A stretch of DNA of 64,000 nt from a virus. Position numbers and translations under genes: made by a program. The notes beneath the pieces are model-generated. The model saw only the letters and a list, made by a program, of their open reading frames with translations. It had not been told where the DNA came from and searched no databases. Where the stretch lies: the IMG/VR virus record IMGVR_UViG_3300015171_000002, positions 44,529 through 108,528 of that record; one strand, 5' to 3'. Below are positions 17,299 to 51,875 of the stretch, one piece after another. Position 1 is the first letter of the stretch. Each line of letters begins with the position of its first letter.

Positions 17299-18840
17299 AT
17301 GACAAAATTTAATAAATTAAATGTATCTGAAAAAGTTGGAATTGGTAATAAAGTAACTGTAAATAAAGCCGGTGGGCCAGCAATTACACTTTCTGATCGA
17401 ATGGAATTAGCTACTCTTTTATTGACTTCTTTTGTAGATGATAAATATTACGAAACTGCATCAGAACAATTAAAACGATTAAGTTCTATTTTTGATCGAT
17501 TAAATAGTAATGGTGATGCTAAATTCGCAGCTAAAGCGGCTATTTATGCTAGACATACAATGGGAATGCGTTCTATTTCTCAAGCTCTTTCGGCTAATAT
17601 TGCTGCTAAAGTAAGTGGGCAGGACTGGACTCGTTCATTTTTTGAGAAATTTCCACGGCGAGTAGATGATATGACTGAATTAGTTAGTTTCTTTCAGTCT
17701 AATTTCTCAACTGGTAAGAATAAATCAGGATATCCAAGAGCATTACCAAATGCTATGAAATATGGATTACGAAATGCTTTTGGTAAATTCAATGAATATC
17801 AGCTTGCTAAGTATCGGGCCGAGGGTAAAGAAGTTAGTCTATTAGATTTAGTAAATATTCTACATCCAGTTCCAAATGATAATAATAAAATAGCTTTAAA
17901 TAAGTTAGTTAATGGAACTTTGACAAGTACTGAAACTTGGGAAAGTCAGATTTCAAATGCTGGACAAGTAGGAGAAAATAAGGAAGAAGTAGACGAATTA
18001 AAGGGACAAGCTTTCGATAACTTAATTAGAACTAAGAAAATTGGTTATTTTGCCCTATTAAAGAATTTACGAAATATTCTACAATTATCACCAGAAAGTA
18101 TTGATGCAGCAGTAGAAATGCTAACCGATAAGAAAATGATTGAAAAAAGTTTAGTATTTCCTTTTAGATTTTTAGATGCTTATGAAGCTATTCAAGCAGA
18201 AGCGGTTGGAGGACATAGTAATAAAAATGTTCAAAAGCTTTATGCTGGTATCAACAAGGCATTAGAATTATCATTTAGTAATGTGCCTGAATTCAACGGT
18301 ACTAATTTAATTGCTGTAGATAGTTCTGGTAGTATGAGTGGTAGACCTTTCCGAATTGCGGCACTTTTCGGAGTTATTCTACTAAAACAAAACCCGGATA
18401 GTGATTTCATGCTATTTGATGATGATGCCAGATATGTAAAGAATGTCAATCTAGGTGATACTACTCTAAGTCTTGTGGAAAGTTTATATAAGTCTCAAGG
18501 TGGTGGAACTAATCTAGCTGATGTTTTCGTAAAAGCAAATAAGAAATATGATCGAGTATTTATTTTTTCTGATTGTCAGTCATGGATGGTAGCCGATAAC
18601 TATTCTAATTATTATAAAGGTGCAGTAGGAACAGTAAAAAATACATTCGCGGCATATTCAAAGAAATATGGTAAGCCGAGAGTATATAGTATAGATTTAG
18701 CAGGTCATGGAAGTGCGGAATTTAGTTCTAATGATGTAAGTACTGTAGCTGGATTTTCTGACAAAACTATAACATTACTATCTAGGATGGAGCAGGATAG
18801 AAATGCTCTAGTAAATACTATCGAAGCTGTAGAACTATAA
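17299..18840 (+). CDS. rsr: Ro60/Rsr TROVE-vWA RNA-binding protein
   Basis: NKAGGPA...LLTSF...YYET; ARHTMGMRS; YQLAKYR; L.DLVNILHP; TWES; ALLKNLRNI; FPFRFL.AY; vWA DSSGSM, GGT and SDCQ. Confidence 0.93.
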   Translation: MTKFNKLNVSEKVGIGNKVTVNKAGGPAITLSDRMELATLLLTSFVDDKYYETASEQLKRLSSIFDRLNSNGDAKFAAKAAIYARHTMGMRSISQALSANIAAKVSGQDWTRSFFEKFPRRVDDMTELVSFFQSNFSTGKNKSGYPRALPNAMKYGLRNAFGKFNEYQLAKYRAEGKEVSLLDLVNILHPVPNDNNKIALNKLVNGTLTSTETWESQISNAGQVGENKEEVDELKGQAFDNLIRTKKIGYFALLKNLRNILQLSPESIDAAVEMLTDKKMIEKSLVFPFRFLDAYEAIQAEAVGGHSNKNVQKLYAGINKALELSFSNVPEFNGTNLIAVDSSGSMSGRPFRIAALFGVILLKQNPDSDFMLFDDDARYVKNVNLGDTTLSLVESLYKSQGGGTNLADVFVKANKKYDRVFIFSDCQSWMVADNYSNYYKGAVGTVKNTFAAYSKKYGKPRVYSIDLAGHGSAEFSSNDVSTVAGFSDKTITLLSRMEQDRNALVNTIEAVEL

Positions 18841-46839: not shown

Positions 46840-47081
46840 AGGTTAGGGATTAATTGAACGCGACGGTTTCTGAAATGAAAAACAGAGTAAGCGACCAATG
46901 GACGATTTTAATTCCTAGCCTAAAATTCCAGTCGCCACAATAGGTTCAAATATCGGATGAAGAGTAGGGCGAGATTATCCGAACTGGAATAATAAAATAA
47001 AGTGGGCGGTGCTTTATAAATAAATAAGCGTCCACAAATAAAATAACCCCCAAATTATATCATAGGGGGTTATTTTATTTA
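46840..47081 (+). ncRNA. Noncoding transcription unit with its own promoter and intrinsic terminator
   Basis: TTGACA(46804)-17-TACAAT; 14-bp closing helix; pseudoknot module; terminator AAATAAAATAACCCCC/GGGGGTTATTTTATTT; no ORF. Confidence 0.6.
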
Positions 47082-50760: not shown

Positions 50761-51027
50761 ATGAACGCAAAAAAGAGCGCCTCAAACAAAACTTATCGGA
50801 ATGGCTTACGTGAATTATGCCTAGAAATTTTAGGCCACAAATGCAATAATTGTGGCGAAACCCGTTCAGAATTTTTAGATTTTCATCATACCAACCCTTG
50901 CAATAAAGTTGCTAGTATCGCTAAACTGATTAGAACTAATCCGGCATTATTGGTGACAGAGATTCAGAAGTGTGTGCTACTCTGCAAGAATTGTCATAAA
51001 GCAGAACACTATGGGAAGAAAATCTAA
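50761..51027 (+). CDS. Small HNH endonuclease
   Basis: CNNCG...LDFHH...KC.LLCKNCH...H. Confidence 0.85.
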   Translation: MNAKKSASNKTYRNGLRELCLEILGHKCNNCGETRSEFLDFHHTNPCNKVASIAKLIRTNPALLVTEIQKCVLLCKNCHKAEHYGKKI

Positions 51028-51578
51028 CCAGACTCTAACTTGACAATACCGCAAAAATAAAGTATCATGTTTATATAGGGTTGGATGACAGAAGAAGAGA
51101 AAATAAAATATGCTCGCCCAACCTATAAAATAAATATGCACTGGTATAGGGGATTGTTAGATATTCCGGTGTCCAGAACTATCGGATGTGAGGGCGTAGG
51201 TTATAATTAGGATAATGCCTAATTAGCCGACAATTCCGAGCCGGAAAAACAAATGTTCTAGCCCACCACATTATTGTGGGATGACGACTAGAACATTTGT
51301 TTTATTTTTTATTTGTGAATAAAATAACTAAAACAAATAAATAGAATAATTATTATGCGCTTTCGTGAATATATTCACAAACAGAATACAATAGGATATT
51401 GTGAATAACTACACAAAAGCAAATATCGGTAGATTACATAATTCTCGATAGGTCAGAAATGGTTAGGATGGGGATAGGATTTCAATAGGGGGTAGGTAAA
51501 TTCTAACCAAACTATAACTTGACTATTTAGAATAAATCGACTAATATATAACTACATCGGCGATACAGGAGAAATGAA

Positions 51579-51875
51579 ATGGATACCACTTATCTTCAGC
51601 AATGGAACGGCGAACACTACATTCGGCAAGTTGTTTATCTGGATTCTCAGTTTGATATCACGAAGCCGGTTTTGTTCGTGGTCGATAAATCCTATAATTG
51701 GGACAATTTCAAAACGGATTATCGCCCCAACGAAATTTTCACGGATGCCGAACAAGCGAAACGGCTGATTACTTTCGAGTACCAGACGCGGAAAATTGAG
51801 GCTATCAAGCTTGTTCGAAAGCTGACCGGATGGGGATTGAAGGAATCGAAAGATTTTGTGGATTCCAATTGCTAG
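51579..51875 (+). CDS. Protein with a ribosomal L7/L12 C-terminal-like domain
   Basis: RKIEAIKLVRKLTGWGLKESKDFVD closely matches the bL12 CTD signature. Confidence 0.8.
   Translation: MDTTYLQQWNGEHYIRQVVYLDSQFDITKPVLFVVDKSYNWDNFKTDYRPNEIFTDAEQAKRLITFEYQTRKIEAIKLVRKLTGWGLKESKDFVDSNC

Follow-up and report, generated by a model that had tools for sequence, protein, structure and literature searches.

The locus at positions 51164 to 51246 raises the question of whether the short complementary segments found there fold into a second copy of a structured RNA and, if they do, what such an RNA would do for the phage. It lies in a window of 64,000 nucleotides, the whole stretch of DNA that was analyzed, which is part of the IMG/VR record of an uncultured soil phage. 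This record is 112 kb long, has a G+C content of 33% and 19 tRNA genes, and is 93% complete according to CheckV. A sequence-only reading had described the locus as copy 2 of a pseudoknot RNA motif carrying an inserted hairpin, and every helix that it named is present there (Table 1).

Fold and predicted transcription unit of copy 2

The 5′ half of copy 2 consists of the segments TTCCGGT, GTCC, AGAACTA, TCGGA, TGTGA, GGGC, G and TAGGTTA, which are followed by the hairpin TAATTAGG-ATAATG-CCTAATTA and by GCCGACAAT, TCCGA and GCCGGAA. The conserved blocks GTCCA, ACTATCGG and GGGCG are all present, in this order. When copy 2 was folded alone, the minimum free energy (MFE) structure was composed of P1, PK and the extra hairpin, with a z-score of −2.9. 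The linker L3, which runs from GGGCG to the 3′ strand of PK, measures 39 nt in copy 2 versus 5–9 nt in the seven other solid members, and the extra length is made up of the 8-bp hairpin and its flanks. This hairpin was found in copy 2 alone among the members, so it is an insertion, as had been proposed. The long L3 makes copy 2 a variant form and gives no ground for excluding it from the family. In the MFE fold of the full-length transcript, GGGGAUUGU (51149–51157) pairs with ACAAUUCC (51230–51237), which spans L3 and the 3′ strand of PK, and this pairing would compete with PK. It is absent from the fold of copy 1, and it may be noise or may represent a switch or an alternative conformer.

The promoter of the copy 2 unit ends 95 nt before the module and is preceded by a TCTAACCAGACTCTAAC module, which is common to about 12 promoters of the region. 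Only three ORFs overlap the unit; they encode 30–54 aa, and none of them had a PHROG match at E < 0.1. The earlier description of an ORF-free unit between a promoter and an inverted repeat was thus borne out, the inverted repeat being part of an intrinsic terminator. The unit looks like a stand-alone transcript that runs from promoter to terminator, and from the consensus of these two elements alone we infer that it would be transcribed, with early timing.

The DNA around the unit has several other features. A free-standing 88-aa HNH endonuclease ORF with its own promoter (50761–51027) lies directly upstream, and its only cross-phage relative among the ORFs of G001, another phage that carries the module, lies about 1.9 kb upstream of the module there, which is probably a coincidence. 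Downstream of the unit, the C-terminus of a 98-aa ORF (51579–51875) matches the C-terminal domain of ribosomal protein L7/L12 (PF00542, E 7e-8). Between 44000 and 52400, where the G+C content goes up from 32% to 35–38%, about 12 promoters have a tandem TCTAACCA...TCTAACTTGACA upstream module, and more than 20 copies of a GCTTTCGTG-N8-TCACAA / TTGTGA-N-type palindrome occur in gene-poor blocks around both RNA units, those of copies 1 and 2.

Table 1. Features of the copy 2 locus and positions of the two other copies in the window
Feature	Position	Strand	Description
RNA module copy 2	51164–51246	+	83 nt; scored by R3 at 40 bits over the full model length 1–64
P1	51164–51170 / 51240–51246	+	TTCCGGT / GCCGGAA; 7 bp, terminal U.G
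P2 (candidate pseudoknot-forming helix)	51171–51174 / 51192–51195	+	GTCC / GGGC
Conserved loop	51180–51188	+	TATCGGATG
PK	51182–51186 / 51235–51239	+	TCGGA / TCCGA; 0 nt to P1 3′ strand
Inserted hairpin, linker L3	51204–51211 / 51218–51225	+	TAATTAGG / CCTAATTA; 8 bp, loop ATAATG
Sigma-70-type promoter	51040–51068	+	TTGACA, 17 nt, TATCAT; 11 of 12 consensus positions
5′ hairpin domain	51078–51124	+	GGGUUGG... / ...CCAACCU; begins at predicted transcript start
Intrinsic terminator	51246–51311	+	Inverted repeat 51246–51303 with 16-bp stem AAAACAAATGTTCTAG / CTAGAACATTTGTTTT, then T-run
Copy 1	46926–46989	+	Own promoter-to-terminator unit
Copy 3	17037–17095	+	In non-coding leader upstream of tRNA-like RNA and TROVE (Ro60) gene 17299–18840

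Recurrence of the module and covariation of its helices

Both strands of the 112-kb genome were searched with a descriptor of topology only, which made no sequence requirement and specified P1, a 4-bp helix immediately following P1, and a 5-bp helix that runs up to the 3′ strand of P1. Five matches were obtained: copies 1, 2 and 3, the antisense of copy 1, and one stray. The loop sequence TATCGGATG occurs exactly three times in the window, namely in copy 2, in copy 1 (46951) and at 9809, where it lies inside a gene and is unrelated. In copy 3, P1 differs entirely in sequence (TAGTGGT/GCCACTA), and the inner helix (TCGGTA/TACCGA) is compensated; together with the further members in other phages, this copy extends the family beyond two members. 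In the leader that contains copy 3 (16900–17240), the module is preceded by a long-range hairpin domain and followed by a tRNA-like RNA that has sequences of a T-arm and a D-arm, and the gene that comes after this leader is of the TROVE/vWA (Ro60) type. A long 5′ hairpin domain precedes the module in all three units, as judged by eye for copy 3.

A possible diverged fourth copy lies outside the window at G000:C1:664-721 (L397:664-721), with a score of 17.6 bits from the covariance model R3, which is within the range of the decoys. It follows a strong extended −10 promoter at a distance of about 10 nt and belongs to the 5′ leader of a gene that encodes at least 468 aa and has no PHROG match. 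Its P1 has 11 bp with one mismatch, its inner helix is UCGG/CCGA, and its P2 is swapped to CUGG/CCAG.

Besides this diverged candidate, there are eight solid members, three in this phage and five on other uncultured phage contigs. L087 is located on a 104-kb contig, 3 nt after a tRNA-Asp and inside an array of about 40 tRNAs, and L255 on an 84-kb contig, 13 nt after a tRNA-Gln. L135 and L224 are on short metagenome contigs; in L224, the module is flanked by a small ORF and a terminator. L409 (L409:100-240, − strand) belongs to a G+C-rich phage, where the module occupies the roughly 100 nt that separate two ORFs of the same strand; its P1 is shortened to 5 bp, and CGGCG replaces GGGCG. The sequence around L087 (G001:C1:1-50000) has 30% G+C, a CheckV completeness of 32% and about 40 tRNA genes over 50 kb; many isoacceptors are duplicated, and one of the tRNA calls has a four-base anticodon.

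The three large carrier phages (G000, which is the phage studied here, G001 and G002) are all tRNA-rich. In an all-against-all ORF comparison they shared essentially no proteins, so the module was not simply inherited with the phage lineage, and the same comparison gave no partner gene common to the three. Ro60 and the terminase of this phage were not found in the examined parts of G001 and G002, and the DUF2201 protein that adjoins L135 is absent from G000, G001 and G002. The carriers range in G+C content from about 30% up to the clearly G+C-rich phage of L409, so the family spans hosts of very different base composition.

These members were obtained against a large background. IUPAC pattern scans of IMG/VR returned mostly chance matches in G+C-rich coding DNA, with L087, L255 and L409 as the only real ones, and the metagenome pattern scan gave two real members (L135 and L224) among at least 120 matches listed. 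The scan of bacterial and archaeal genomes gave no convincing member among at least 120 matches listed; its candidates L307 and L312 were rejected, as R3 scored them at 15–16 bits, the level of the decoys. BLAST of two members against 50,697 cultured-phage records yielded only noise at E of about 7–8, and megablast of the copy 2 locus against phages yielded no match.

The model R3 was trained on copies 1 and 3, L087, L224 and L255, with copy 2, L135 and L409 left out. The earlier models R1 and R2, built from one and two sequences, respectively, were too narrow and missed copy 2 and L087, and MAFFT misaligned two to three of the copies. R3 scored copy 2 at 40 bits, with a genome-wide E of 4.3e-8, so by sequence comparison copy 2 was confirmed as a genuine member of a recurring folded RNA module, and the earlier reading of it as a second copy of one structured RNA holds. 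The other left-out members, L135 and L409, scored 52 and 31 bits. As a hard control, we used 100 metagenome loci (646 kb), all of them selected for TATCGGWW...GGGCG...WWCCGARC; the two true members among these scored 58 and 52 bits, and the other 98 loci, which are decoys, scored 20.2 bits or less. Matches of R3 were on the sense strand only, and no conserved ORF was found across the module.

Covariation was evaluated on an alignment of nine rows, which includes the uncertain ninth copy and in which three of the solid members are paralogues of one genome. P1 is 95% paired in this alignment; all seven of its pairs vary, and six of the seven change on both sides. The inner helix UCGGW/WCCGA has four invariant pairs and two that covary (UA/AU; UA/AU/GC). 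The covariation score was 0.49 versus 0.16 in shuffles, none of 500 shuffles reaching 0.49, and it was 0.12 or less when the partners were slid. Within the limits of these nine rows, the alignment shows that selection acts on P1 and on the UCGGW/WCCGA helix. The earlier claim that changed base pairs indicate selection on structure is therefore upheld for these two helices, but not for GTCC/GGGC, which shows no covariation in its main register.

The GUCC/GGGC pairing

P1 and TCGGA/TCCGA are nested, so the word pseudoknot, which had been applied to the whole motif, rests only on the GTCC/GGGC pairing (P2). Every member can form at least four contiguous P2 pairs, although by our estimate this is not beyond chance for such short windows, as most random sequences would be expected to offer as much. 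In the main register, all four pairs are invariant or broken and never compensated. The CGCC of copy 1 pairs perfectly only with GGCG, in a register slid by one base, L087 uses another register (UCCA/UGGG), and L409 has CGGCG, or alternatively GACG, with one pair broken in the main register. The chance level, the missing compensation, the shifted registers of copy 1 and L087 and the lost pair of L409 all speak for a plain nested bulged hairpin, in which P1 would be stacked on UCGGW/WCCGA while GUCC and GGGCG would be single-stranded contact sites that never pair.

However, GUCC and GGGC are both conserved and are complementary to each other, the two substitutions of copy 1 (CGCC) restore perfect pairing with GGCG, and the diverged candidate G000:C1:664-721 alters all four pairs to CUGG/CCAG. 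The last is the only full compensation of P2, and it comes from a weak candidate whose score lies within the decoy range, so a GUCC/GGGC helix, and hence an H-type pseudoknot, is treated here as plausible. We regard the nested hairpin as possible but rather doubtful.

Possible functions of the module

Searches with Rfam 15 over the whole window returned only tRNAs at gathering scores, and searches around copies 1 and 2 at E up to 10 returned noise only (E > 1 for 51040–51330). As judged by these models, the module family is uncatalogued in Rfam and matches no listed RNA family. We consider it fairly probable that copy 2 is a stand-alone ncRNA unit and that the module is an uncatalogued, autonomously folding phage RNA family serving as a compact handle for a common host factor. 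Copy 2 would then be the third domain of an ncRNA of about 235 nt, in the order of the promoter (51040), the 5′ hairpin, the module and the terminator (51246–51311). The family core is about 60 nt long and closed by P1, which is free in sequence and has 7 bp in copy 2. The second helix, UCGGW/WCCGA, is 5–6 bp long, with a 3′ strand that runs into the 3′ strand of P1 with no spacer, and P1 and this helix are expected to form a single stacked rod of about 12 bp. The loop blocks are GUCC(A), A-M-UAUCGG and GGGCG, and GUCC/GGGC would tie the 5′ bulge to the hairpin loop. In copy 2, the 8-bp hairpin has been inserted into the one linker that tolerates it.

The module occurs in unrelated phages, at varied places on the sense strand that look transcribed. 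Presumably, the module is transcribed and works at the RNA level, where it would be a compact handle recognized by a factor that very different hosts have in common, and copy 2 would supply this handle on a small early transcript of its own. Since the carriers have no genes in common and range from low to high G+C, the partner would be universal or the RNA would be self-acting. A universal partner might be RNA polymerase, a metabolite, or a host factor of RNA processing or surveillance. The contexts, which include stand-alone units, a tRNA array, a 3′ UTR and an inter-ORF gap, are heterogeneous and indicate no single partner. The likeliest partners would belong to RNA processing or surveillance, since the neighbors of the module are tRNAs, a tRNA-like RNA with Ro60, and other structured RNAs. 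These RNA neighbors, together with the two dedicated promoter-to-terminator genes, make a trans-acting or processing-related handle our best guess.

Several other explanations have to be weighed against such a handle. The region of 44–52 kb is packed with DNA repeats and palindromes and an HNH endonuclease gene lies immediately upstream, so the module might resemble such an RNA by chance or might be a repeat at the DNA level, such as a protein-binding site or a mobile-element remnant, with no RNA function. This is extremely improbable: compensatory changes keep the RNA helices across unrelated phages, the match is strand-specific with an E of 4e-8, and none of the DNA repeat families of the region covers 51164–51246. 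A tRNA-like minihelix would be suggested by the positions of L087 and L255 (3 and 13 nt after tRNAs), by the tRNA richness of all three large carriers, and by copy 2 itself, in which 7 + 5 bp have a continuous 3′ strand. P1 (7 bp) and PK (5 bp) would mimic the acceptor/T-arm stack, and RNase P or other tRNA-processing enzymes would cut on the 5′ side, which would free an upstream tRNA or hairpin RNA. Such processing has been proposed for the small stable RNAs encoded beside the tRNA genes of T4. Pseudoknot RNAs can serve as RNase P substrates (PMC12710915). Variation in the length of P1 (5–11 bp) and the absence of a T-loop weaken this reading: P1 can be extended to 8–11 bp in copy 1, copy 3 and L135 (11 bp) and has only 5 bp in L409. 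In addition, there is no 3′ CCA, neither ARAGORN nor the Rfam tRNA model (RF00005) made a call on any copy, and R3 has no match to T4 rnaC or rnaD, so we consider tRNA mimicry unlikely. A new small self-cleaving ribozyme that trims polycistronic tRNA, ncRNA or mRNA transcripts, by analogy with theta ribozymes, would agree with the compact conserved core, the closing helix that is free in sequence, the sense orientation in varied transcribed gaps, the several copies per genome, and the positions adjoining tRNA 3′ ends in L087 and L255. RNA-repair enzymes of the phage, noted in the sequence-only reading and indicated by a PHROG match to an RNA ligase, could presumably handle the cleavage ends. 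HDV-like theta ribozymes are found within 5 nt of phage tRNAs (PMC10879173). However, searches at E up to 10 gave no match to any Rfam ribozyme model, the module cannot be threaded onto the HDV fold as judged by inspection, and no conserved candidate cleavage dinucleotide is evident at either border; self-cleavage is thus very unlikely.

A new self-processing or processing-directing RNA class, either a small ribozyme or a minimal mimic that recruits RNase P, would cut transcripts at defined points. The unrelated phages would then have placed the module behind tRNAs, small RNAs and genes, and the role of copies 1 and 2 in this phage would be to mature the hairpin RNAs upstream of them; we give this class little credence. 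A further explanation is a cis-acting transcription element, which would be either a put-like RNA that carries transcription past a strong terminator or a ligand aptamer that gates read-through to the L12-like gene at 51579. The order of promoter, module and terminator in copies 1 and 2, and of module and then terminator in L224, would be in keeping with such a role, and the put RNAs of HK022, which are about 70 nt long, are found shortly after early promoters and ahead of terminators (PMC9378689). However, put RNA is built from two side-by-side stem-loops, lacks a closing helix and contacts features of RNA polymerase that are specific to gamma-proteobacteria (PMC9378689). P1 and the terminator stem neither overlap nor offer an alternative pairing, the units downstream of copies 1 and 2 have their own promoters (47205 and 51517), other members lie in tRNA arrays or between ORFs with no terminator nearby, and no Rfam riboswitch class matches. 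A cis-acting role therefore appears highly doubtful.

Comparison with known systems gave partial likenesses. T4 rnaC (species 1) and rnaD (species 2), at NC_000866 70908-71171 next to tRNA-Arg, are likewise small ncRNAs beside phage tRNA genes and are co-transcribed with them. They are 139 and 119 nt long, and rnaC has a tRNA-type T-arm, whereas the module has a core of about 60 nt, lacks a T-loop and also occurs far from tRNAs. Identity with rnaC or rnaD was rejected, as R3 found nothing in NC_000866 69000-74000, and a full-text literature search on T4 species 1 RNA with RNase P found nothing. Like the module, theta ribozymes are compact multi-helix RNAs a few nucleotides from phage tRNA 3′ ends (as in L087 and L255), with a 7-bp P1 in which the 3′ strand comes immediately after that of the neighboring helix. 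In contrast to the HDV-like fold, the outer helix of the module encloses everything and the candidate crossing helix would pair into a hairpin loop, and the 3′-terminal P2 strand, P4 and the catalytic C of J4/2 are missing. The pistol ribozyme was also rejected, because threading by hand gave an incompatible topology.

Like copy 2, HK022 putL and putR are structured RNAs of about 70 nt between an early sigma-70 promoter and a terminator, and they act without a dedicated phage protein (PMC9378689). In a put RNA, two adjacent stem-loops form a V with a triplex, whereas the module has a closed P1 and a stacked inner helix; there is no sequence likeness, and unlike put RNA the module family is also found after tRNAs and between ORFs. 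YrlA and Ro60 (Rsr) resemble copy 3, whose leader has a tRNA-like RNA and lies directly upstream of a TROVE-domain gene, and both are modular structured RNAs. Unlike YrlA, copy 2 and most members have no Ro60 gene nearby, and the module has no bulged Ro-binding stem and no Rfam Y-RNA match.

Large tRNA-rich phages carry many small RNAs without assigned roles. A compact core that is conserved in phages sharing no genes is the pattern that preceded the discoveries of ribozymes, riboswitches and protein-sponge RNAs. Copy 2 adds to this in two respects. It reveals a linker that tolerates an insertion of 32 nt, which may be useful for probing, crystallization and engineering, and it suggests that a dedicated promoter-to-terminator gene can carry the module as its main cargo. 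Should the module prove to have a universal partner or to be catalytic, it would provide a new handle on phage RNA processing or on host RNA surveillance; otherwise, it would be a further phage RNA family that had not been catalogued.
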